From the IMG/VR virus record IMGVR_UViG_3300044568_001017, positions 1 through 54,283 of that record: 54,283 bases of DNA, one strand, 5' to 3'. This document shows positions 2,575 to 52,783 of the stretch, piece by piece. Each line of letters begins with the position of its first letter. Position 1 is the first letter of the stretch. Position numbers and translations under genes: made by a program. The notes under the pieces were generated by a model. It was given only the letters and a program-made list of their open reading frames with translations, was not told the DNA's origin and did no database searches. The DNA comes from a virus. Its lineage: Duplodnaviria; Caudoviricetes.

Positions 2575-3345
2575 ATGAGAGGAAACACTATAAGGGAAGA
2601 TGGAACTCAAAAAGGAAGTGGATTTCTTGGAGGAATAAAGAGACTTGATAACCCAGACGACATTTCAAGTGAAATATCAATTGGCGTTGATTGGGGTAGT
2701 GGTGAAAAGTTAATACCACAAATGGTTCCAACTCTTGATGATAATGAACTAAAGTATCTTCTTTCTACTCCAGAGGAAAAACTTCAAGCTGCAAATCCAG
2801 ATTTAAGTAAATCTATTACACGAAAAGCAGTTGAGTTTGCAAAACAAAGAGAATCACAAGGATTGCCATTTTTTGCTCAACCAGATGAGTCACCTAAAGA
2901 ACCCCGTATTATTTCTAATGAAAATAAAATCTTAGGCTATCCAATCGTTGAGCCAGATGAAGAACTTCTAAAGTGGTTTAAAGAAAACCCGCAAACATCA
3001 GGAATGCAATGGGGAGCAGGGAAGAATGATTCTCCAACAGATACTCCTAGATCAATTGTTCTTAATCCGTTTAGTAAAATAAGCAAAGAACAACAAATGG
3101 CAGTAGCAAAGAATGAAGCTATTAGACATTTCATTGATGAAAAGCAAATCATTCCAAAATTCAATCTAACTCCAGAACAAGAGAAAGCATTTGCTGGAAC
3201 TCAATATGGAAAGATTGCAGATAAGACTCCTTTAAAGCAGAGCGTCCTAGCCCGTATTCTTACGGGAGATCAATCTGCTGGAAAAATCACCCCAATGCAA
3301 CAGAAATGGGCGGATTGGGTTCAGTCACAACTACCACAACAATGA
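2575..3345 (+). CDS. Hypothetical phage protein
   Basis: 256-aa ORF tightly packed after the portal gene. Confidence 0.75.
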   Translation: MRGNTIREDGTQKGSGFLGGIKRLDNPDDISSEISIGVDWGSGEKLIPQMVPTLDDNELKYLLSTPEEKLQAANPDLSKSITRKAVEFAKQRESQGLPFFAQPDESPKEPRIISNENKILGYPIVEPDEELLKWFKENPQTSGMQWGAGKNDSPTDTPRSIVLNPFSKISKEQQMAVAKNEAIRHFIDEKQIIPKFNLTPEQEKAFAGTQYGKIADKTPLKQSVLARILTGDQSAGKITPMQQKWADWVQSQLPQQ

Positions 3346-3590: not shown

Positions 3591-4862
3591 ATGGCAGACA
3601 CAACCGACACAGCAGAAGTAATCAAGGAGCTACAGGGGAAACCCCAAGTTCCTATTAAGGGAAACACATCTGACTTCCTAAAGAAGTTCAGTCAACAACA
3701 AAGCGACGAAGGTAAACCTAGCGCAACCAACATGGGCGACCCAATGCTAGGTCTTAGAAAGAATAATGAAGAAGAACCAGAACACACAGGGATTACTGAA
3801 TCCGAAATCACGTCCGACAGATCAGGCAAGAAAAAAGGATTCGTTGAACGGCAAATCGAAGAGAACCGAAAGCTCAAAGAAGAACTTGAAAAGTATAAGC
3901 GTGACGAAGTTCCAAAGTTTGAAACCAAAATCCAAGAGCTTGAGCAGCTTATCTCGGAAGCAAAATCCACAAAGGAAACAAACCACTACCAACAGCAACT
4001 CAACAAAGCAAACGAAGAAAAGCTCGACGTTGAACACGCCTTGTCAAAGCAAATCCAAGAACTCAGAGGTAAACTGGACTTTCACGACATTGCCAGTAAC
4101 CCCGACTTCCAAAAGAACTACATTGAACCTCTTAAAAGCACTTACGAATCTGCGAGACAATTGCTGGGGAATGATCCAACGCTTGTTTCAACCTTCTCCC
4201 GTGCTGTCAACGCAAACGCCGCTATTTACAATTCCCAAACAGAAGCGGACAGGCAAGCTGCGGAATCGGACAGGGATCAAGCGTTCGACGAAATCACAAA
4301 CTCACTCTCGCAATTCAAACAGTACCAATTTGCAGAGCAAGTCAACAACTTCATCAAAGCCGCAAAAAGCCACAATGCCGCCCTTGCCAACTTTGAAGAG
4401 ACTAAAAAGACCATAATCGAAACGTCTAAGCAACGTGAGCAAGAGGGGCGTAATAAGTTCCTTAATACATGGCGCGATAGTTATAAGACCACCCAGCAAG
4501 AGATAGACGGCGCAACTTCAGAATCAGAAGAAGTTTCTGAGTACATGAAGGAAAAGGGAATCAAGTATGACTTGAGCCGGGATGAAGCAATCGCGCTTTC
4601 GGCAACCCAGCAATCGAATGAGGAAGCATCCGTAGAGGATATGAACCGACTCATTCACCAAGGGCGCAACTATCAAAAGCTACAAGCCCAAATCAAAGCA
4701 TACAAAGAAATGGTAAAAGAGAAGAACGAGTATATCGAACAACTCAAGGGATCATCTCGCATTTCTGCTTCGCCAAAGACTTCTGATTCTCCATCACAAC
4801 GGATGAGTATGTCGGAGGGACTGGCGGCAAAGTTAGCACGATTCGGGCCGCGCACTGCATAG
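3591..4862 (+). CDS. Putative capsid scaffolding protein
   Basis: 423 aa, charged and coiled-coil rich, immediately upstream of the capsid gene. Confidence 0.65.
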   Translation: MADTTDTAEVIKELQGKPQVPIKGNTSDFLKKFSQQQSDEGKPSATNMGDPMLGLRKNNEEEPEHTGITESEITSDRSGKKKGFVERQIEENRKLKEELEKYKRDEVPKFETKIQELEQLISEAKSTKETNHYQQQLNKANEEKLDVEHALSKQIQELRGKLDFHDIASNPDFQKNYIEPLKSTYESARQLLGNDPTLVSTFSRAVNANAAIYNSQTEADRQAAESDRDQAFDEITNSLSQFKQYQFAEQVNNFIKAAKSHNAALANFEETKKTIIETSKQREQEGRNKFLNTWRDSYKTTQQEIDGATSESEEVSEYMKEKGIKYDLSRDEAIALSATQQSNEEASVEDMNRLIHQGRNYQKLQAQIKAYKEMVKEKNEYIEQLKGSSRISASPKTSDSPSQRMSMSEGLAAKLARFGPRTA

Positions 4863-4883
4863 CCCAATAATCCGTAATAGTGG

Positions 4884-4925
4884 AAAGGTGGAAGACTTAA
4901 AAAATCTTCCACCTTTTTATTTTTT
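4884..4925 (+). terminator. Intrinsic terminator
   Basis: AAAGGTGGAAGA / TCTTCCACCTTT 12-bp stem followed by a T-tract. Confidence 0.8.
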
Positions 4926-4928
4926 CGC

Positions 4929-4956
4929 TTGACAACAAATATAATGTTTCTATCTT
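4929..4956 (+). promoter_or_regulatory. Sigma70-like promoter for the capsid leader
   Basis: TTGACA-N16-TATCTT directly after the terminator. Confidence 0.6.
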
Positions 4957-4999
4957 TTAATCAAACGGGATATCCGACATTATCGTTTACGATAACATT

Positions 5000-5150
5000 A
5001 GGGATTCAGTCTCACCCAGACTGGCGAGTAACATCACTCGCATGAAAAGATGTTTCTGGACTGCTCTCGCAAGAGAGATTCGGGGTTGAATCCAGCCGAA
5101 GAAAACAAAGCACTCGCTTTGACATTCTTCGGACTTGTCATGGGTGCAAC
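5000..5150 (+). ncRNA. Structured, pseudoknotted 5' leader RNA of the major capsid gene
   Basis: Hairpins 5007-5023, 5024-5041, 5064-5077 (GCAA loop) and 5120-5140 (cUUCGg); loop complements AACATC/GATGTT and CACCCA/TGGGTG. Confidence 0.65.
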
Positions 5151-5183
5151 AACCAAACCAACTAAACCAAACAAATAAACAAA

Positions 5184-6593
5184 ATGTCAGATCAACTATA
5201 CTTCAATAGCTGTGCTGAAATTGATTCTTTCTTTCGTGAAGGCCGCGAATATTTCAACGACCTTTATGTGAAGAAACTTGTCACTAACAGTGCATACTTC
5301 ACACGTTTCGAGGAGCAAGCATGGCCTCTTAACCATACAACTGAACAGAAAGCATTCCGCTTCGGACGTGGGTTCCACGATCCTTGTACGCCTTTCCGTC
5401 AGATCACCGACACCTACTGCGAGACTGATTCTTGCGATAGCAAACCCGAAGTGATTCAACGCCCCGGCACTGAGTCCTATACTTTCGAGTTGCTCCGTAA
5501 GGAAATGACTACTGACTGGATTTGCGTTGAGAGCTTGCTCTATCGCTTGTTCCCTGCTGAAGAGATTCTTCAGTTTGAAGAGTCGAATGCTCGTATCACC
5601 AAGAATGTTCACGAAGAGTTCCTTCGTTCCAACTACATCGGTGGTTCTGGACACAAATGGATGGGTATCACTACTGATGACGGAACTTATTGCGGCCTCG
5701 TTGACGATGGCGCATGGTTCGTTCCAGAGCATACTCTCAACAACGAAGCTGGTTACGACCTCTGCGCCCTTCGCGTTAAGATCGCCGCCGCTGACCTTGG
5801 CAAGATTGCTTATCTCTCGCTTGATATGCTCGACGATGCACTCGTTGACCTCCAAGACGAAGATGACGCTTTCCGCCTTGATCTACAAGACGCAACGGGT
5901 CAACCTTTGCTCGATATCGTCATCCCTGACCCACAAGTTGGACGTGCGCTTTACTTCCAAGCGAAACGCAACAACGGTTACTGGGATGCAAACACTGATT
6001 TCGACGAGCGTCTTACCCGTCTGAAACTCGGCATCAATCGTATCATCGGCGACTACGCCTTCGGTTATGACATCAACTCCGCTCGCTTCAACGCTGACAC
6101 GGCATTCAATGCTAGTCTCCCTGCGTTCAGCGAAGGAAACCCAGCCTCATGGCCTCGCCTCGTTCGCGTTCCTCGCTACATCAAGACTGTTCTTGAGCAA
6201 GGTTGCGCTTACATTCCTAACCGCGCCTACCGCAATGCCGACTTCGGTATCTCTGTAGCTATGGTTAACAAAGCCATGTGCAAATGGACGATGCCTTCCT
6301 CGACTGGATACGGCCAAGCCCAACAAATGACCCAGAACTACGCTGGCGATTGGGATTGGAAGAATCCAGATTGGGAGTGCAACCGCTGGCGTAAAACGGG
6401 CTTCTATCAAGCCCAGTTCCGTCTTGCCGCACAGGTTAAAGACCCAACCATCATGCATAGCTTCTTGCATCGTATGCCCAAGAGCAAGAACCTCTACGGT
6501 TCCTGCTGCGAAGTGCAGACCTATATCGTTCCTGAGAACAATCAGGATTGCTATAGCTGCGCTGGTGTAGGTGACATTGTTGTGCCTTCCTAA
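5184..6593 (+). CDS. Major capsid protein (Cys-rich)
   Basis: 469 aa after the scaffold gene; high-expression-like codon usage (CGT, TTC, AAC); own promoter upstream and hairpin downstream. Confidence 0.8.
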   Translation: MSDQLYFNSCAEIDSFFREGREYFNDLYVKKLVTNSAYFTRFEEQAWPLNHTTEQKAFRFGRGFHDPCTPFRQITDTYCETDSCDSKPEVIQRPGTESYTFELLRKEMTTDWICVESLLYRLFPAEEILQFEESNARITKNVHEEFLRSNYIGGSGHKWMGITTDDGTYCGLVDDGAWFVPEHTLNNEAGYDLCALRVKIAAADLGKIAYLSLDMLDDALVDLQDEDDAFRLDLQDATGQPLLDIVIPDPQVGRALYFQAKRNNGYWDANTDFDERLTRLKLGINRIIGDYAFGYDINSARFNADTAFNASLPAFSEGNPASWPRLVRVPRYIKTVLEQGCAYIPNRAYRNADFGISVAMVNKAMCKWTMPSSTGYGQAQQMTQNYAGDWDWKNPDWECNRWRKTGFYQAQFRLAAQVKDPTIMHSFLHRMPKSKNLYGSCCEVQTYIVPENNQDCYSCAGVGDIVVPS

Positions 6594-6602
6594 GTTAAAC
6601 AA

Positions 6603-6629
6603 GGGGAGGGGCTATTAAAGCCTCTCCCC
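6603..6629 (+). terminator. Stem-loop after capsid gene (terminator or processing site)
   Basis: GGGGAGGGGCT ... AGCCTCTCCCC; T-tract is weak. Confidence 0.55.
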
Positions 6630-6653
6630 ATAACCTTAAATAAAATCAAATAT

Positions 6654-7268
6654 ATGTCTAATTCACGACCTCTCGCTTATGATCGGGTTAACCTTTTTGG
6701 CCCGATTGCCGTAAACTTGCTCGTTGCTGGTGACGCTGATCTTCTTGTTCTCAATGATGAGGATACTAAGTTCATCCCAACTAGCATCGTTCTCGAAACC
6801 GCTTATGCCCGTGGCACGACCGCAACTGATCCAGTTGTTGTTGCTGACATTGGTACAACTGGTACTGACCTCACATCCTCGCTGACCATCACTGATTCCC
6901 TTGATAACCAAGGAACATCAAACACATTGGCTTTGCTTGCTAACGCTCCTGTAGTTACTGGCTCCCGTAGCGTTCGTCTTCACAAGACAACTGTTGGTGC
7001 TGGTCAAGCTACCGCAACTCGTTCCCGTACTTCGGGCGTTGCTACAATCGTAACTGGTGCTGTTCATGGTTTTACCACGGGCGACACGATCACGATTGCC
7101 AGCATGACCGACACTACGTTCAATGACGTTCAAGCGCAAGTAACTGTTACTAGCACAACTGCATTCACCTACGAAAACGCTGGTGTGGATGTTGTTTCTG
7201 GTGCAGATACTGCCGGACGTGTTGGCGCACTTTATGTGAACGCCTACGTTGTTGGTATCTACTACTAA
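6654..7268 (+). CDS. Putative head decoration / virion protein
   Basis: Thr/Val-rich beta protein with a 'HGFTTGDTITI' module; capsid-like codon usage. Confidence 0.55.
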   Translation: MSNSRPLAYDRVNLFGPIAVNLLVAGDADLLVLNDEDTKFIPTSIVLETAYARGTTATDPVVVADIGTTGTDLTSSLTITDSLDNQGTSNTLALLANAPVVTGSRSVRLHKTTVGAGQATATRSRTSGVATIVTGAVHGFTTGDTITIASMTDTTFNDVQAQVTVTSTTAFTYENAGVDVVSGADTAGRVGALYVNAYVVGIYY

Positions 7269-7596: not shown

Positions 7597-7619
7597 TTAT
7601 CGTTAACGATAACAATCTT

Positions 7620-7895
7620 ATGGCTACTCCAGCACTATCACAACCCTGCTTTGTTGATTTAACTCCAGATCAGCAGAACTTTAATATCTACGAGTCTCTT
7701 AAACAGATCGCAGGATTTGATATTCCTGCCTACGATCAGATTGACATTGCTTATTACGGAACAACAAATAACATTGCAACAGTCCAGTATCTATTCGATG
7801 GAGTGCCAGTAGCTACATTAAACTTGTTCTACTCAGTTAATCCTCCAACAACGAATGATGCAAATCTAACGACTGTCACAGTAACATATCCATAA
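7620..7895 (+). CDS. Small virion-associated protein
   Basis: 91 aa; N-terminal [13 protein letters not shown] resembles the C-terminus of 7333..7596. Confidence 0.6.
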
Positions 7896-12843: not shown

Positions 12844-12874
12844 CGGATTTTAAAATATCGTTAACGATAAAACT

Positions 12875-14098
<1,224 letters not shown>

Positions 14099-23045: not shown

Positions 23046-23050
23046 CTATT

Positions 23051-24589: not shown

Positions 24590-27500
24590 ATGGCTTTCGA
24601 CATAGACGTTTTTCTAAAAGAAAGTGGAAGTGGCGTTGTTGAAAATGAGAGTCAGACAGAGAAACCTCAATCAGTTCAACCCAAAGAAACTGCATTTGAT
24701 ATTGATACATTCCTAAAAGAGAATGTTTCTAATGTTCCAGTAGTATCAGAGCAAATCCAACCGCAAGAACCATCTGGTATCCTAAGACAAGCAGCAGACA
24801 TCCCACTTAAAGTAGCTCAAGGTGGAATCAGTTCAGTAAAAAGTTTCACTGATTTATTCGGCGCAGACAATGCAATGTCTAAAGAGTTAGCTGGATACGA
24901 GAAGTGGGTTGGTAGCCTAGTATCTGCTGAGTCCAAGAAGGACGATGAAGAGATCGCTAGGATTCTAAAGGATGCAGAAAACAAGGGAGTCTACGATAAG
25001 GTTGTAGCTGGTCTTCAAGCATTCTCTAAAGCTCCACTAGAAATGACAGCGCAAAGTGCTGGGTACATGATACCGCAACTTGCCGCTGGTGTGCTAGGAA
25101 AAGCCGCGCAGTTTACTAAAGCTGGTATCATTGGAACACAAGCTGCCATTGGATTTGCTCAAGGAGCAGGGCAAGCTAAAGGAGACATCTACGAATCGAC
25201 ATTAGATTATCTACGCAAACAAGGTGTGTCAGAAAATGTAGCGAACGATAAAGCAATCGAAGCCCAAGCAACGCTAGGAAAGAACCTAGATCAGATTTTA
25301 TTGAGTGCTATAGGGAATGCTTTGACATCTTCAACTGGTGCTGAAGCTATCGCAACCCGTATACTTATCAAGCAAGGCAAGGAAGCAACTGGTGGTGCTA
25401 TCAAAGGATTTTTAAAGGGAGTTGCCGCAGAATCTCCTTTGGAAGCAATTCAAAGCGCACAACAAGAAGTTGCTAAGAATGTTGCTATACAAAGAGAAGG
25501 TGGCGATGTGCCTACGTTCAAGGGTGCTATCGAGAGTGCTACTACTGGCGCGGTAGCTGGTGCATTTATCGGTGGGCCACTGGGTGCATTTGAAGCAATG
25601 AGTGCAGAGCAGAAGGCAGAGATAGACATTACCAAAGAAGCCAATCGTAAGGCGCGTGACCTAGAAGCACCCGATACAGCAACGCAAGCTATAGCAGCAG
25701 CGATTACTAACCTTGAGCGAGGCATTGATAATAAAAGAAAAGACCTAGATGTTTTAGAATCAACCTCACCAGAGGCATCGAAACTACGCTTAGACATTGC
25801 CGCTGACCAAAAGATTTTAGCTCAATCCAAAGAGCAAGCTAACAAATTAGGATTATCGGAAACGATAACAGAAGCAGAGAAGCAACAGATTGAGTTAGCT
25901 AAACAGATAGCTGCACCCGAAGTTGTCGCAGTCGCAGAAGCTGTAACACCCGCACCAGTAGAACAAGTAGTCACGCCACCAGTAGAGGTTGCACCAACCA
26001 TCGCAGAAACCGCGCCAGTTGAGCCAGTAGTAAGCCAAGAATTTAAAGATGAACTTGAAATGTCTGGAGTTGCTTACGATGGAGATACAAGGTATTCCGT
26101 CCAGCAATCTTCTAATGGCACATTCAGAGCGGAAAGAATTGTAAACGGAAAGAAGGAAGATATTCAAATTGGATTGCCAGACATTGAAACGGCACAAAAT
26201 GTAATCTTTAATTCAGTTGGAAAAGAAGTTCCTGCAATAACAGCAGAAACTCCTGCCATAACAATGCCAGAAATTCAACAGCAAGTTCCAAGTGGGATGT
26301 CGGTTGAGGAAGCCAAGGCATATCTTGAAGAAAGAAATAAATCTACAATCCTTGGATACGCGCCAGAAGATATTATGGCTATGCAACAAGGAAAGCGTGT
26401 TGCCAGAACTATTCCTCCCGCACCAGTCATCGAGCAAGCTGCACCAGCAGAAGCTCCCGCGCCAGAGGTTGCGCCTACTTTATGGGTTGCTCCAGAGCAA
26501 AAACTTACTTTGCAAGAAAACAGAGCATTGCAGATAGCCAACCTAAAAGGGACGGAAAAACGGACTGGTAATATTACTTTTGTTCCAGAAAAAATGATGA
26601 CTCCGCAAAGGTTGCAATCATTAAGAACGGAACAAGAATCATCTGGAACATTGAAGCAATTTCCAAGAGGGGGAAAGTTTATTGAGATAAAAATGATGGC
26701 AGATGTGACTGGTGATCCAAATGCAAAGGGATGGGCTATCATTGATCGCAGAACTGATCTTAATAGGAGAGAATGGATTGCTCAAATACCAAATCGAGAT
26801 GAAAGAATTTTGGCTGGAAGTATTGCAAATAATGAATCACAAAAGATTGTTTCTGCAATAAAAGAAGGAAGTATTACACAAGAAAGATCAAATCAACTTG
26901 TTGATGAGGCAGTAAACAATCAAATAATTTCATCGGATTTTGCTAATAATTTAAAGACTGAAATCAGTAAGTCCACCCGCGCAGTATCGGAAACGATAAC
27001 GGAGCCAGCAGAAGAACAAGGAGGTATCTTAAAAGAAACTGCTAAATTTGCTGACGAAGCTTTGCGCGAGCGAGATAAAGAAGTCGCAAGATACAAAAAG
27101 AAAGCTGATGCAGAACGTAAGGCGGGGCGTGAAGAGATGGCGCAACGATATGAAGGAATGATAGACGATTTAATGTCTGTCCCTTCTGAAGATTTTAAAA
27201 AAGATGTAATTGAAAACCCTGAATATTACATTGAATCAAATATTGATCCATTTCTGCGATTCAAAAACAAAGAAGTAAATAGAGCCACCCCATTAACACC
27301 ATCTAAACGCAAAAAAGAATCGGGCGGCGTTCTAATCCCCACCAAAGAAGACTTCATCCAAGCAGGGCAGAACATCTACGAGGCTGGCATGGAGTTTGGT
27401 GCTTGGGCTAAACAGATGATCCAGAGATTCGGTGATGCGGTGAGAGAGTTCCTTGGTGATGTATGGCAAGCGGTGAGTGGTGCGCCAGCGAAGTTAAATG

Positions 27501-30500
27501 AACTGATGGGTTACTTGCCGGGTAAAGGTGAGGCTGGATCGGTGAACCTTGGCAGCGGGAAACCAGCAACTGAATCAAAAAATGCTTTAGAACTAATTCG
27601 CGGAAACTATGGTGAGTTGAGCGATATGATCAACAAGATCATAGATAGTAATCAAAAAATCGCTGATGCTCTACAAAAGATACCCGTTGAACTAACAAGC
27701 AGGAATTCCTTTGATGGAGAAACTGTAAGAATTAGCAAGAGCTTCTCTGGGCTTAAATTAGTTGACGCAATCAACCACGAAATCACTCACTCATTTCTAG
27801 CGGTAGCATTAAGGGAGATTCCTTCATTCCGTGAAGCGATTAACTCAATCCGTCTTGATGCAATTGAGAGAGCAAAGTATTCAAATGACATAAGTTTTAG
27901 GGGCGCAGTTAGTCTAATAAAAGAAGCGCAAGGCTTATCTAGAGGGCTAATCTATACTAAAAGGGACACAGAAAATTTAAGCCAATACATGATCAGAAAT
28001 ACCAATGGCTTAATGTATTTGTGGAATTTGGATAAAACAAATCCTCCATTTACATACGAGATTTTTGAAACTGCTTATGCATTAGCATCCAACGATGAAT
28101 TCTTGGCTCACCTTATGAGTGACAAAAGATTCCGTGATGAGCTAAAAACATACAAGGTATTCACGCCAGACAATAGGAATCTCTTCCAGAAGTTTATAGA
28201 CTCTATCAAGGGCTTATTCCAAAAATTAACAAAGGTTGAGAAGACTGTTCTTGATAAAGCAATGGAGCAAGTTGAGCGAGTTGTTCAACTACCAGAGTAT
28301 AACCCTCGCCCAATTGAGGGACTTGCAGAAATGCTAGCTAAATATGAACAAGGTGATGCCCCAATAGAACCAGAAGCAGAGACAATCACCGAAGCAATGG
28401 GTCAAGGTCTGGATATTGGCAAAGAAGATAATATGCCAATCAACAATAAGATTGAGAGTCATATTAAGAACTTCGCTGTTGTCCGTGGGTTCTTTGAGTC
28501 TGCTAGTGATAGGTTGCGTAGAGCAGGGTTTAAAAAACTAGCTACAGCTATTGATGATTACTATGACCAAGCTCAACGCCGACTTGGATTCGCTAACAAG
28601 ATTCTTCTCCCAGCTTTTGATGAGTACGCAAAACAATCTAAAGCAAACAAGAAAAAGATTGATGAAGAAGTTAAGATGTTCTATGCCGCGCAAGAAAACA
28701 AGCGTGATACGGCTGAGTTCTTTGATGAGTTGAACCCAATCACTCAGAAGATTGTAACTGCTTGGCAGAAGTTTGGTGAAGAATCTGGTAAAGATAACCA
28801 AAGAATCGGAATCAAAGTTTTTGATCGTGGACTACAAAGGTTTCGACCAATCGGACGAGTAGATAAATTCTTCCCTCGTATTCTCAAACCAAAGTACAAA
28901 CAGGCATTGATGGAGCCAGACAAATATCAGAAAGAATACAACGAGATTGTAGAAGCCTTAATGAAGTCTGGAAGAATCGAGAAACCAGAAGACGCAGAGC
29001 GTTACATCTCTAACTACGAAGGAACTGGCACTCAGAAAGACTACTTCTCAGGTATTGAATCTGCCCGTGGTCAAGCACTCCCAGAGGAATTGTATGACTA
29101 TTCCATGCAAGTGATGACGGACTACGTTGCACGATGGGCGCAACACGCTAGTCGAATCGAACAATTCGGACAGAAACTTGGTGAGAACTCGATGACACTT
29201 TGGAATAGATCAAGAGCATCAACTAGAGATCGCAGGACAATCGACTACATTACCGCTGCTCAAGAACGAGTAGAAGGATACTTCCCAAATGATCCTTTCG
29301 TGAAAGGGATGGCGGCATTGAACATCTGGGCATCGGGATTGCAGTTAGGAAACCCAGCATCAGCTACGATGAACCTTGTTGGTGGCACTACGCTGAATGC
29401 CATGATCGGACAACCCGGCGCGGCTTCTAGCTACGTTGAGTCCCTTGTGGAGCTACGCAAACTTGGTAGCAATCTAAAAGACGCTAGAGAAAAAGGAATC
29501 ATCTCGCGTGATCTGATGAATATCGTAGGAGATCACCAAGAAGTTCTCGATCAAAATGGGATCGCTAAAGCTGGACAGAAGACTGCTGACTTCTTATTGA
29601 AGTGGTCAGGTTTCACTCCAGTAGAGCAGATGGTCAGAACACAAAGTCTGATTATCGGAAAATCATTCTTGAGAAAGACACTATCTAGCTACTCTCAAAA
29701 TCCAGATAGTTTATTCTCTAAACAAGCTAGTACATGGTTAAGCCGAAACAATTTTGATATTGATAAGCTGCTCGTTGAGCAAGGAAGCGGCCCAGAGACA
29801 GACAAGTTGATGCGCTACTTCGCTACTGCTTCCCAAGGTGGTTACACAATTTCACAGACTCCTATCTTCATTGATACACCGATTGGTAAATTCCTTTTCA
29901 AGTATCAGAAGTTCTCTACCCAAGTCATGCGTCAAGCATGGAAGAATACGTTTGAGCCAGCGTGGAAGGCCGTCACGTTTAAAGGTGAGACGATGCAACT
30001 GCCATCTGAAACAAGGCAGTTGCTCTATAGACTGAGACTAGCAGAGGCTAGGGAGATCGGAGACAACCGAAAGATTTCATTGGATGAGATACCACAGAAG
30101 GTATCTAAAGCAGAAGCAAAGGCATTAACTCTCATCCCTGTGATGATGTGGCTTGCCTCTGCGTATGTAGGTGGTGAAGCTATCCTGCGTTTGAGGGATG
30201 TTTTGTTTGGCGTAATGATGAAGGGGCCAGACTACGAAGACATCTTGAAAGCGTTAGAAGATGATGAAGACGATGATGAACTTTATCTAGGACTTCAACG
30301 CGCATGGTACAATCTGATTGGTATCGGTGCGCTAGGATTGATCGGCAACTACGGGCAGTTCTTCATGGACTGGCAGGATCGTGAGCGCGTCAAGAATCCG
30401 CTAGACCCACCAGCACTTAGCCTAGTCAAAGAAACTGCTACTCTGATTCAGAACGTAGCAGACCAAGGCACAATCACTAAAGGAGACATCAACAATTATG

Positions 30501-31024
30501 TGAATCGGATGTCATCCATGTATAGAGTGAGTCAGAAACTATACCAAACAGCAGCTAGTGGATTGGGCTTCTCAGACGCACCAACAGTAGCTGAAGAGAT
30601 ATACAGGAGAGAAGTTGCTGACATCAATAAGTATGGTCGTCGCTGGGCTGAGTCCGCTGGACTTGAGTACAGAACCAAGCGTCCAATGGATATTGCCCCA
30701 AGCAAAATGACTCCTATCAACAGGAAGATTTCTAGTTACCTACAAAGGAATGATCCAGTCGGCGCGTCTGCTTATGCTAAAGAATATCTCAAGACACTAC
30801 CCAAAGATGCTCGCAAGAATGCAATCCAGAGCATGGAGTCTGGAGCTAGGAATCGTCAGCCTCTGCGGTTAGGTGACGGGCCAATGGATGAAGCAGAGAA
30901 GAGAGCATTCTTGAAGTGGGCCAAAACAAAAATGAGTCCAGAGAAGTACGCTAGTATTGAGAAACTGACTAAGCAGTATGAATCGAATCGTAAAAAGTTT
31001 CTGATGCGATTGCCGAATAGATAG
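24590..31024 (+). CDS. Large internal virion / ejection (polyvalent) protein with HExxH motif
   Basis: 2144 aa, last gene of the structural operon; N-terminal FDID repeats; INHEITHS followed later by DEFLA (zincin-like). Confidence 0.65.
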   Translation: MAFDIDVFLKESGSGVVENESQTEKPQSVQPKETAFDIDTFLKENVSNVPVVSEQIQPQEPSGILRQAADIPLKVAQGGISSVKSFTDLFGADNAMSKELAGYEKWVGSLVSAESKKDDEEIARILKDAENKGVYDKVVAGLQAFSKAPLEMTAQSAGYMIPQLAAGVLGKAAQFTKAGIIGTQAAIGFAQGAGQAKGDIYESTLDYLRKQGVSENVANDKAIEAQATLGKNLDQILLSAIGNALTSSTGAEAIATRILIKQGKEATGGAIKGFLKGVAAESPLEAIQSAQQEVAKNVAIQREGGDVPTFKGAIESATTGAVAGAFIGGPLGAFEAMSAEQKAEIDITKEANRKARDLEAPDTATQAIAAAITNLERGIDNKRKDLDVLESTSPEASKLRLDIAADQKILAQSKEQANKLGLSETITEAEKQQIELAKQIAAPEVVAVAEAVTPAPVEQVVTPPVEVAPTIAETAPVEPVVSQEFKDELEMSGVAYDGDTRYSVQQSSNGTFRAERIVNGKKEDIQIGLPDIETAQNVIFNSVGKEVPAITAETPAITMPEIQQQVPSGMSVEEAKAYLEERNKSTILGYAPEDIMAMQQGKRVARTIPPAPVIEQAAPAEAPAPEVAPTLWVAPEQKLTLQENRALQIANLKGTEKRTGNITFVPEKMMTPQRLQSLRTEQESSGTLKQFPRGGKFIEIKMMADVTGDPNAKGWAIIDRRTDLNRREWIAQIPNRDERILAGSIANNESQKIVSAIKEGSITQERSNQLVDEAVNNQIISSDFANNLKTEISKSTRAVSETITEPAEEQGGILKETAKFADEALRERDKEVARYKKKADAERKAGREEMAQRYEGMIDDLMSVPSEDFKKDVIENPEYYIESNIDPFLRFKNKEVNRATPLTPSKRKKESGGVLIPTKEDFIQAGQNIYEAGMEFGAWAKQMIQRFGDAVREFLGDVWQAVSGAPAKLNELMGYLPGKGEAGSVNLGSGKPATESKNALELIRGNYGELSDMINKIIDSNQKIADALQKIPVELTSRNSFDGETVRISKSFSGLKLVDAINHEITHSFLAVALREIPSFREAINSIRLDAIERAKYSNDISFRGAVSLIKEAQGLSRGLIYTKRDTENLSQYMIRNTNGLMYLWNLDKTNPPFTYEIFETAYALASNDEFLAHLMSDKRFRDELKTYKVFTPDNRNLFQKFIDSIKGLFQKLTKVEKTVLDKAMEQVERVVQLPEYNPRPIEGLAEMLAKYEQGDAPIEPEAETITEAMGQGLDIGKEDNMPINNKIESHIKNFAVVRGFFESASDRLRRAGFKKLATAIDDYYDQAQRRLGFANKILLPAFDEYAKQSKANKKKIDEEVKMFYAAQENKRDTAEFFDELNPITQKIVTAWQKFGEESGKDNQRIGIKVFDRGLQRFRPIGRVDKFFPRILKPKYKQALMEPDKYQKEYNEIVEALMKSGRIEKPEDAERYISNYEGTGTQKDYFSGIESARGQALPEELYDYSMQVMTDYVARWAQHASRIEQFGQKLGENSMTLWNRSRASTRDRRTIDYITAAQERVEGYFPNDPFVKGMAALNIWASGLQLGNPASATMNLVGGTTLNAMIGQPGAASSYVESLVELRKLGSNLKDAREKGIISRDLMNIVGDHQEVLDQNGIAKAGQKTADFLLKWSGFTPVEQMVRTQSLIIGKSFLRKTLSSYSQNPDSLFSKQASTWLSRNNFDIDKLLVEQGSGPETDKLMRYFATASQGGYTISQTPIFIDTPIGKFLFKYQKFSTQVMRQAWKNTFEPAWKAVTFKGETMQLPSETRQLLYRLRLAEAREIGDNRKISLDEIPQKVSKAEAKALTLIPVMMWLASAYVGGEAILRLRDVLFGVMMKGPDYEDILKALEDDEDDDELYLGLQRAWYNLIGIGALGLIGNYGQFFMDWQDRERVKNPLDPPALSLVKETATLIQNVADQGTITKGDINNYVNRMSSMYRVSQKLYQTAASGLGFSDAPTVAEEIYRREVADINKYGRRWAESAGLEYRTKRPMDIAPSKMTPINRKISSYLQRNDPVGASAYAKEYLKTLPKDARKNAIQSMESGARNRQPLRLGDGPMDEAEKRAFLKWAKTKMSPEKYASIEKLTKQYESNRKKFLMRLPNR

Positions 31025-52397: not shown

Positions 52398-52775
52398 ATG
52401 AAACTCAAAAATAGAAACCTATCTCCAGTTGGCGGGTGGTACTACAAATACGAGATCAAGCGTGATAAACTCACCTTCCCAGCCGTAGTCTACGGAAGCA
52501 CATGGAGCAACTTGATTTCAAACATCCAAAAAGATTGCCGATCAAATGGAGTAGAAATTCCCAGTAACATTGAGCAACTTGTCGAAGATCAAATCTGCCA
52601 ACGCCAGCCAAGTGATCGTTGCTGGTATGCTGATGGGATTGGAGATAGAATCGCGCAAGCAATCCATACTGTAGCAGCGGTCACAGACAGGGTGCTTGGC
52701 ACTAAACTAGAACACAAAGCAAGGGGATGCAGTTCATGCAATAGAAGAAGAAATGCCTTGAATTCATTATCGTAA
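52398..52775 (+). CDS. Hypothetical Cys-containing protein
   Basis: 125 aa ending GCSSCNRRRNALN; first gene of the structural operon. Confidence 0.7.
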   Translation: MKLKNRNLSPVGGWYYKYEIKRDKLTFPAVVYGSTWSNLISNIQKDCRSNGVEIPSNIEQLVEDQICQRQPSDRCWYADGIGDRIAQAIHTVAAVTDRVLGTKLEHKARGCSSCNRRRNALNSLS

Positions 52776-52783
52776 ACGATAAA

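Follow-up and report, generated by a model that had tools for sequence, protein, structure and literature searches.

The locus

The element considered here is an RNA leader standing directly before the major capsid gene in a 54,283-nucleotide (nt) stretch of viral DNA (Duplodnaviria; Caudoviricetes), which is a virus record of IMG/VR rated complete (IMGVR_UViG_3300044568_001017) and is hereafter called the window. The leader lies in the gap 4863-5183, between an open reading frame (ORF) of 423 amino acids (aa; 3591-4862) and one of 469 aa (5184-6593). It is a conserved, transcribed and folded non-coding RNA of the + strand with one proven pseudoknot, and it belongs to no described RNA family. 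The features of the locus, with helices named P0 to P4, are as follows.

4887..4925, + strand: intrinsic terminator of the upstream 423-aa gene, read from the sequence; hairpin GGTGGAAGA / TCTTCCACC (4887-4913), then a T-run
4929..4956, + strand: promoter-like site; TTGACA (4929-34), 16-nt spacer, TATCTT (4951-56), predicted start near 4964
4974..5002, + strand: 5' hairpin P0; pairs 4974-5002, 4975-5001, 4977-4999 and 4978-4998
4980-85/4990-95, + strand: apical stem of P0, palindrome ATTATCG-TTTA-CGATAA
5007..5023, + strand: hairpin P1, CAGTC/GACTG, with a 7-nt loop of consensus nnACYCn (TCACCCA in the window)
5024..5054, + strand: H-type pseudoknot; P2 (5024-28/5037-41), pseudoknot pairing PK1 (5031-35 with 5049-53) and A-rich linker ATGAAAA (5042-48)
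5056..5095, + strand: P3 domain; P3 (5056-60/5091-95), P3b (5061-63/5081-83) and P3a (5064-68/5073-77, GCAA loop)
5096-5103/5125-32, + strand: P4, CCGAAGAA / TTCTTCGG, abutting P3 and enclosing P4a
5106-11/5116-21, + strand: P4a, core AAGCAYTCGCTT nearly invariant
5110..5147, + strand: alternative hairpin (Alt) between the P4 interior (GCAC..GACA) and the 3' tail (TGTC..GTGC, 5136-46), containing a cUUCGg stem
5148..5183, + strand: A/C-rich spacer of AAAC-type repeats, unstructured and without a Shine-Dalgarno sequence, reaching the ATG
5184..6593, + strand: major capsid protein gene, 469 aa, HK97 fold by AlphaFold2 (AF2) model and Foldseek

The promoter-like site agrees with the consensus at 10 of 12 positions in a consensus scan, and its TTGACA is invariant upstream of the leader, standing 32-38 nt before the first position of the covariance model described below (window 4964) in 104 of 105 distinct upstream contexts. 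At the position of the terminator the aligned homologs have a different GC-rich hairpin followed by a T-run. The spacer 5148-5183 is unpaired in the minimum free energy (MFE) fold of the window (RNAfold), and its length and sequence differ among homologs.

An initial reading of the sequence, the first-pass annotation, had described a doubly pseudoknotted leader upstream of the major capsid gene. Its naming of the downstream gene agrees with structure prediction, as the AF2 model of the 469-aa protein, of moderate confidence (predicted local distance difference test score 61.2, predicted template modelling score 0.67), gave 43 Foldseek matches in the PDB at E<=0.001; every listed match is a capsid entry of a phage or virus, and the capsid of phage N4 (9e99_A, E 7.4e-6) ranks first. 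On this model 5184-6593 is an HK97-fold major capsid gene. Pfam and PHROG searches with the protein gave no match, and its 81 protein clusters, down to 44% identity, are all unnamed.

Conservation of the fold

The capsid protein query returned 162 relatives in IMG/VR, of which 80, at 93-100% identity, were kept. Further loci on viral and metagenome contigs came from a profile query together with a DNA pattern of the invariant leader columns; single-protein queries with P0009 and P0025 gave 3 and 0 loci. Leader identity drops to about 70% while the capsid protein stays above 93%, so the leaders are good material for covariation. The homolog set holds 59 to 80 distinct leader sequences. Alignment A1 consists of 50 distinct leaders aligned by MAFFT and not fitted to structure, and alignment A4 of 59, from which the pairing percentages of single helices are taken.

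In A1 the proposed structure has 89.9% of cells paired, as against 80.3% in column shuffles (0 of 500 reached the observed value) and 31-42% when the partners were slid, and 23 pairs change on both sides. The structure is also upheld on 59 sequences and PK1 on 54; compensatory changes occur in 28-31 pairs, the pseudoknot included. The folded strand is the + strand because the G-U pairs (U-G in 15 sequences at pair 149-184, which is a P4 pair, G-U in 15 at 109-143 and U-G in 7 at 112-133) would be A-C on the other strand. Thermodynamic folding points the same way: 4990-5190 of the + strand folds at -56.3 kcal/mol (z = -3.59; 1 of 200 shuffles as good), versus z = -2.62 for the minus strand.

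The order of helices from 5' to 3' is the P0 hairpin, the P1 hairpin, P2 with its local pseudoknot, P3 and P4, and covariation supports P0, P1, P2, PK1, P3/P3a, P4 and P4a. In A4, 99.2% of cells are paired in the base of P0, 100% in its apex, 99.0% in P1, 100% in P2, 91.2% in P3, 100% in P3a, 80.3% in P4 and 99.0% in P4a, the lower values for P3 and P4 arising because one clade is misregistered by one column. A coding role was rejected: the 42-aa ORF at 5050-5178 starts at an ATG that most homologs lack, and ATG-initiated ORFs of at least 20 aa are found in only 8 of 59 leaders.

All of the complementary segments that the first-pass annotation had listed are present when the sequence is read directly: CAGTC (5007-11) with GACTG (5019-23); GCGAGT (5024-29) with ACTCGC (5036-41), whose loop AACATC (5030-35) complements GATGTT (5049-54); TGGGTG (5141-46); CTGGA (5056-60) with TCCAG (5091-95), enclosing CTCTC-GCAA-GAGAG (5064-77); GGATTCA (5002-08) with TGAATCC (5087-93); and GACA..cTTCGg..TGTC (5121-39). 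The same is true of the promoter (TTGACA, 4929-34) and palindrome (4979-96) that it had put upstream. Hairpins P1, P2 and P3/P3a proved real, being paired across homologs with compensatory changes, and the covariation that had been proposed as a check was found, in the 23 pairs of A1. P0, P4 and P4a had not been among its structures. One alternative helix that it had suggested, GGATTCA/TGAATCC, was discarded, as it breaks where 5002 changes from G to T (19 of 59 sequences) and 5002 covaries with 4974 in all 59.

Individual helices

At the foot of P0 the pair 4974-5002 is C-G in 40 and A-U in 19 of the 59 sequences and is unpaired in none. In seven loci (L086, L088, L089, L091, L092, L097 and L112) a hairpin of the GC-GUGA-GC type takes the place of the palindrome while the base CCGAA/UUAGG is kept. 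Since the palindrome can be swapped for another hairpin on the same base, it acts within the leader as an RNA hairpin.

All five pairs of P1 change on both sides. Downstream of it, the three core pairs of PK1 are paired in 53, 54 and 54 of 54 distinct sequences in a plain MAFFT alignment, with 24, 25 and 4 double changes, and there are 25 distinct combinations of P2 and PK1. The complementary strands of PK1 take the forms ACAUC/GAUGU, AUCG/CGAU, CAGC/GCUG, CAGA/UCUG, AUAG/CUAU, ACAG/CUGU and ACCG/CGGU.

P3 is CUGGA/UCCAG or CCGGA/UCCGG in 59 of 59 sequences, with U-A exchanged for C-G. All five pairs of P3a show double changes and are 100% paired where the hairpin is present; it is deleted in at least 28 of 59 sequences. 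The bulge on the 3' side, GGGTTGA (5083-89), is nearly invariant, and its GGGT is invariant in A1. Two pairings offered by RNAalifold were set aside, a mini-hairpin GGG/UCC inside P3, which its invariant pairs do not distinguish from P3 (P3 is preferred, as its second pair covaries), and a pairing of 4967-69 with 5055-57, which has A-C mismatches in 7 of 50 sequences and clashes with P3. Kink-turn, T-loop and tRNA-like readings of the bulge, judged by eye, are misfitted by the variants UUGAG, UCGGU and UAGAC, and ARAGORN found no tRNA or transfer-messenger RNA in the window.

Compensated strand forms of P4 are CAGAGGAA/UUCCUCUG, CCGAAGAA/UUCUUCGG, CUCGAAA/UUUCGGG, CCGAGGAA/UUCCUCGG, CUCGAAAAU/AUUUUCGAG and CUCAAA/UUUGAG, and the outer pair of P4a is C-G in 48, A-U in 5 and G-U in 4 sequences. 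Invariant unpaired nucleotides are found in the bulge (GGGU), in the linker (AAAA) and in AAGCAYUCGCUU. The ACY of the P1 loop can pair with the GGU of the bulge in 97.7% of cells, this pairing varying on one side only.

Two remote capsid relatives, of 48% and 54% identity, keep a P3-like helix with a GGGUUGAR bulge (L330:1085-1160 and L286:130-225). Both also carry exact 7-8 nt complements of the bulge (CTCAACC, TTCAACCC) 17-32 nt before the ATG. For the main family a pairing of the bulge GGGUUGA with the A/C-rich spacer was rejected, with 0 of 80 types beating shuffled spacers (median p 0.54).

Two folds of the 3' domain

Alt and P4+P4a are mutually exclusive. When 5096-5150 and its equivalents were folded in 18 representatives, P4+P4a had energies of -10.7 to -20.1 kcal/mol and Alt of -12.6 to -20.2 kcal/mol; the two folds are of similar energy in all 18, and Alt is the MFE structure in 7. 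Complementarity of the tail was assessed free of register with 300 shuffled tails for each type. Against the P4 interior it is significant (p<=0.05) in 40 of 44 distinct types, the rows for leaders of the CUCGAAA type being weaker as their 'tail' includes two P4 nucleotides. The relation between tail and P4 interior is a conserved complementarity rather than a set of fixed pairs. Pairing of the P4a loop with the tail in a single fixed register was rejected at 45.9% paired, and the clades of L235, L189 and L179 have a self-contained tail hairpin instead. Formation of P4 and Alt together as a classical pseudoknot would be ruled out in the window on geometric grounds by the 3-nt link between the P4 end and the tail strand.

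Two structures of the first-pass annotation belong to this region. The term 'doubly pseudoknotted' holds for the pseudoknot in the P2 loop, which covaries, and not for the pairing of the P1 loop with the tail (CACCCA with TGGGTG), which is paired in 45.7% of cells compared with 32-42% in controls in which the whole structure was slid. For the P1 loop, complementarity of the tail reaches p<=0.05 in 8 of 44 types; the window (p = 0.01) and L074 belong to these 8. The match of P1 loop and tail arises because one motif, GCAC(U/C)C, occurs in both the P1 and the P4a loop. The second pseudoknot (5013-5018 with 5141-5146) is not a feature of the family, though in the lineage of the window itself it may form. 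The cUUCGg-capped stem forms the tip of Alt, in competition with P4, which has better support; covariation is seen in the outer pairs of the stem (C-G in 28 and G-C in 22 sequences, 2 unpaired and 7 gaps), while the pair closing the UUCG is unpaired in 47 of 59.

Distribution

Covariance model R1, built from A1 with the nested helices, was run against all loci. One full-length copy each was found in 78 of 81 sources, and among further loci in 13 of 14, 78 of 80 and 66 of 80, 11 of the 14 misses in the last set being loci with upstream DNA shorter than 20 nt. Each phage has one copy, which always lies on the capsid strand and immediately precedes the HK97-fold capsid gene. Loci with at least 77% capsid identity and upstream DNA all carry the RNA at 85 bits or more; at 48-68% capsid identity the model fails or matches in part (L339, L330, L286, L341), the partial match in L341 scoring 30-34 bits. 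No full-length match to the model was found in L085, L199, L246, L286, L330 or L339. More than 200 contigs carry the leader. GenBank phages gave no match to the leader as DNA or to the capsid as protein.

A second, weak model match (29.6 bits) lies on the minus strand of one contig about 5 kb from its real leader (L174:2317-2476). It consists of a copy of the palindrome and a T-arm-like GGTTCAATCC and is probably not a second leader.

Transcription

Parts of the stretch are held by 24 RNA runs, of which four (X1, X2, X3 and X7) were examined. Contigs of X1, X2 and X3, lake-water metatranscriptomes from three studies, begin at 4974, 4975 and 4975, which is the first base pair of P0, and in the X3 contig a sequencing adapter is joined at 4975. 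The 7 nt preceding this boundary (GRGAWAK) are conserved. The X2 and X3 contigs run unbroken to 6832, through the capsid gene and a hairpin without a T-run behind it (6603-6629). Summed RNA depth rises from 0-6.6 over 4291-4927 to 31-70 from position 5019 onward.

Surrounding genes and the recurrent palindrome

The leader stands at the predicted transcript start of a co-directional gene block that extends from 5184 to about 31000, all on the + strand. The hairpin at 6603-6629, directly after the capsid stop codon, has 10 GC-rich base pairs (GGGGAGGGGC / GCCTCTCCCC) and may be a 3' stabiliser or a weak terminator. Within the structural block a 2144-aa ORF (24590-31024) has no PHROG match; by its size alone we take it to recall the giant virion proteins and virion RNA polymerases of N4-like and crAss-like phages. 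Before the leader, between portal and capsid, are genes for a 256-aa protein (2575-3345), with a weak trypsin-like peptidase match below the cutoff (DUF31, E 4.5e-4), and for the 423-aa protein (3591-4862), with no family; these products may be the prohead protease and the scaffold. Gene starts across the window (e.g. 128-146, 7614-7622, 12872-12877) are A-rich and without Shine-Dalgarno sequences, which suggests, from sequence, a host that initiates translation without Shine-Dalgarno pairing.

The palindrome of P0 recurs in the window. At no more than 2 mismatches TTATCG-N4-CGATAA has 19 sites versus 0.22 expected (110, 4979, 7596, 12854, 14119, 18373, 20899, 23048, 25852, 26983, 31134, 33448, 37051, 38794, 41583, 47608, 49272, 50607 and 52766). 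In about half of them a start codon, on either strand, follows within 0-30 nt, and others are inside ORFs; the site at 23048 is probably due to chance. The recurrent palindrome could serve throughout the phage as an RNA hairpin, as a binding site for protein, or in both ways. An exact 127-nt repeat (1-127 and 52657-52783) ends at the last base of the palindrome, beyond which the copies differ completely; the pattern suggests either that assembly joined two strain variants or that a mosaic junction falls on the palindrome.

Possible function

Of the roles that the first-pass annotation had offered, a cis-regulatory RNA of capsid expression is the best class of explanation, with the mode of action a matter of interpretation. 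The reading favoured here, to which we would give about an even chance, is that the leader domain stabilises the capsid mRNA in cis against 5'-end-dependent decay and keeps the A/C-rich spacer open for ribosomes. A sigma-70-like promoter (TTGACA, 4929-34) would start transcription of the late capsid mRNA, of which window 4964-5147 would be the structured 5' domain. The RNA would fold into the 5' hairpin P0, next into P1 and the compact H-type pseudoknot (P2 and PK1, with an A-rich third loop), and next into the P3-P4 domain with its invariant GGGUUGA bulge and invariant AAGCAYUCGCUU hairpin; about 36 nt of unstructured A/C-rich RNA without a Shine-Dalgarno sequence would then lead to the AUG. 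P0, flush with the RNA end, could together with the pseudoknotted fold block 5'-end-dependent decay, so that capsid mRNA would accumulate, and the fold would insulate a single-stranded A/C-rich landing pad left open for ribosomes. The invariant unpaired nucleotides and the choice between P4+P4a and Alt may allow modulation by a factor or by folding kinetics.

Several points weigh against stabilisation. A length of about 185 nt with invariant bulges and a conserved Alt exceeds the needs of a simple stabiliser and points to something more specific. Presence and continuity are shown by the RNA contigs, but of the true end they offer no more than a weak hint, and the three studies may represent one campaign. 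Their boundary is about 10 nt after the predicted start (near 4964), which could reflect trimming, library loss or another start; libraries of this sort commonly lose some 10 nt from RNA 5' ends. The X7 contig spans terminator and promoter (4200-5272), so that read-through RNA or DNA is also present. Lastly, a scan of genome contigs for the host, on which the relevant RNases depend, gave only a 51.8-kb contig in an archaeal metagenome-assembled genome (MAG) and a 1.7-kb contig in a Spartobacteria MAG, both taken to be mis-binned.

A rival reading is a regulatory switch, a riboswitch or protein-binding operator in which a ligand, a phage protein (capsid, scaffold or other) or a host protein binds the P1/PK1/P3 core and fixes P4+P4a versus Alt, so timing or limiting capsid synthesis. 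This is a possible explanation, though one we hold less probable than not by a good deal. It would account for two exclusive 3' folds of similar energy in 18 of 18 representatives, for a tail that complements the P4 interior beyond shuffles in 40 of 44 types despite differing sequences, for the invariant unpaired GGGU, AAAA and AAGCAYUCGCUU, for the ability of the P1 loop ACY to pair with the bulge GGU in 97.7% of cells, and for the layout of the PK1 stem and A-rich tail, which is that of small pseudoknot aptamers. However, neither fold has a visible output, as Alt lacks a T-run and the AUG is about 36 nt past the tail in RNA that neither fold sequesters; the L235, L189 and L179 clades have their self-contained tail hairpin; the pairing of P1 loop and bulge varies on one side only and is hence unproven; no riboswitch family matches; and the nucleotides between PK1 and the 3' strand of P2 are not conserved. 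A more particular form of this idea would make the leader a new class of riboswitch-like device of phages, with the P0-P1-PK1-P3 core as an aptamer; a metabolite of the host, or a protein of phage or host, would bind it, pick P4+P4a or the equally stable and equally conserved Alt, and so set capsid mRNA survival. This form is improbable. If true, it would, for example, mean an exonuclease-resistant fold that is formed or dissolved, coupling capsid production to the state of the infected cell.

Other explanations fare worse. That the nascent leader modifies its own RNA polymerase, so that terminators of the long late operon are read through (a processive antitermination or put-like RNA), fits an element at the predicted transcript start of a long co-directional block and the passage of the X2 and X3 contigs through the GC-rich hairpin 6603-6629 to 6832; yet since the hairpin lacks a T-run its read-through requires no special mechanism, the fold is unlike the two-hairpin put RNA, and the element is tied to the capsid gene, one copy per phage, rather than to operon starts generally, which makes this very unlikely. 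The boundary at 4974/4975 in the contigs of three runs, some 10 nt past the predicted start and at the first P0 pair, with the conserved GRGAWAK before it, could be taken for a 5' end made by a self-cleaving ribozyme or an RNase processing site. We consider this scarcely credible, as 4974 covaries with 5002 and must be in the RNA, a 5' loss of that size is usual in such libraries, P0 is a simple 5' hairpin without the P1/P2/P3 nesting of ribozymes like that of hepatitis delta virus (HDV), no ribozyme family matched at E<=10 (window) or E<=1 (homolog loci), and the contigs of two runs are unbroken from 4975 to 6832 and so inside the leader. Equally slight is the chance of a free trans-acting or structural RNA released from the leader, such as a packaging RNA (pRNA), decoy or small RNA: the size of about 185 nt and the compact fold would be suitable, and two molecules could in principle be joined by pairing of the complementary 4-nt P1 loop (ACCC) and bulge (GGGU), but there is no terminator or conserved processing site from 5147 to the ATG, leader and capsid ORF are continuous in the X2 and X3 contigs, and the element is always directly before the capsid gene. 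The ribozyme and the pRNA-like RNA, both named as options in the first-pass annotation, are thereby disfavoured. A purely DNA-level element (operator sites or a cruciform) with no RNA function seems the least tenable. The palindrome, with its 19 sites in the window versus 0.22 expected and its presence inside ORFs, may also be a DNA site; but compensatory changes in 28-31 pairs including the pseudoknot, G-U pairs that fit + strand RNA only, leaders with an unrelated GNRA hairpin in place of the palindrome, and presence of the stretch in RNA libraries all speak for RNA.

Structured leaders controlling phage late genes are few, and most are known from model phages. The present one is an RNA of about 185 nt, supported by covariation and with a conserved two-state 3' domain, before the most highly expressed gene of widespread uncultured lake phages. 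It opens the question of how capsid is synthesised massively in phages of hosts that do not use Shine-Dalgarno sequences, and whether phages use RNA switches or nuclease-resistant folds for capsid synthesis. As the capsid is unannotated in Pfam and PHROGs, the leader RNA is also a handy marker for the phage group.

Comparison with known RNAs

The search of Rfam 15 that had been suggested as a check gave no family match in the window or in nine homolog loci. In the window (4700-5400, E<=10) the best match was a miRNA model on the terminator, at 22 bits versus a gathering score of 97; near-threshold matches were miRNA models on the terminator, and nothing credible fell on 4964-5183. The nine homolog loci, L098 among them, gave 0 matches at E<=1. 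Hammerhead, twister, pistol and hatchet models were not among the Rfam matches for the window or the homolog loci, and the listings of a full-text literature search held no description of the leader element.

Among aptamers, the preQ1-I class (Rfam PreQ1) resembles the leader in its 5-bp stem and in the pairing of the stem's loop with an A-rich tail, at the tail's 3' end, and the variant of L098, UGGAG-UUCUAGUU-CUCCA-AUCAAAAACUA, looks much like it. An H-type pseudoknot with an A-rich tail along the stem is present, and P2, the AUGAAAA linker and PK1 covary; the likeness is one of layout only. The loop here is only 8 nt, and there is no match to the PreQ1 model in the window or the 9 homolog loci including L098. 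In preQ1-I aptamers the nucleotide that immediately precedes the 3' strand of the stem is a conserved, ligand-binding C, whereas this position is A, AC, AU, AA, GU or UU across the 25 P2/PK1 variants and is not conserved. As for riboswitches generally, a conserved alternative fold is present, but neither a terminator nor the start region is involved in it.

HDV-like ribozymes are nested double pseudoknots of P1, P1.1, P2, P3 and P4 that cleave at the 5' end of P1. The leader differs in having no P2 strand between the first helix and the enclosed hairpin, and no HDV-type model in Rfam matches it. Put RNAs consist of two hairpins just after the promoter and make the polymerase resistant to terminators; the leader agrees in position and differs in fold. 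The phi29 pRNA, a small transcript of its own, binds to the portal and forms multimers through loop-loop pairing. It is of similar size and also has complementary 4-nt loop and bulge sequences, but the leader is joined to the capsid ORF in RNA contigs with no terminator after it, and nothing links it to portal or packaging. With the exonuclease-resistant RNAs of flaviviruses the leader has in common a compact pseudoknotted fold 5' of the protected RNA, and here the RNA boundary is at the foot of the first helix; the flavivirus RNAs have a ring-forming three-way junction, and the leader is likened to them by proposed function only.

The leader of T4 gene 32 has a pseudoknot and an unstructured A/U-rich operator. 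Both leaders, of phage mRNAs, have an H-type pseudoknot close to the 5' end, and in both the start site lies in an unstructured A-rich stretch behind it. They differ in the downstream gene, which encodes a single-strand-binding protein in T4 and the capsid here, and in the four more helices of the present leader. Hairpins at or near the 5' end also stabilise very highly expressed mRNAs of bacteria, as in the 5' untranslated region of E. coli ompA and in Bacillus. The phage leader is far larger and more conserved than these, with a pseudoknot and invariant loops, and is likened to them by proposed function. P0 covaries, and its first pair is where the contigs of three runs start; transcription is predicted to start about 10 nt further upstream, and true ends cannot be fixed from contigs.

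Regulation by the gene 32 pseudoknot is mentioned in PMC10690425, which states that Rfam holds no gene 32 model. The same paper describes 8,495 structured-RNA candidates from IMG/VR, with candidates upstream of capsid and other phage genes. Its capsid example, with domain PHA00201, is within 25 nt of the start codon; the present leader ends about 36 nt before the ATG, and its capsid has no domain match. The leader RNA may itself be among these candidates. It is, in sum, a cis-acting structured leader of a phage mRNA, found in no Rfam family and no GenBank phage, and its closest analogues by working principle would be the T4 gene 32 leader and the 5'-hairpin stabilisers.

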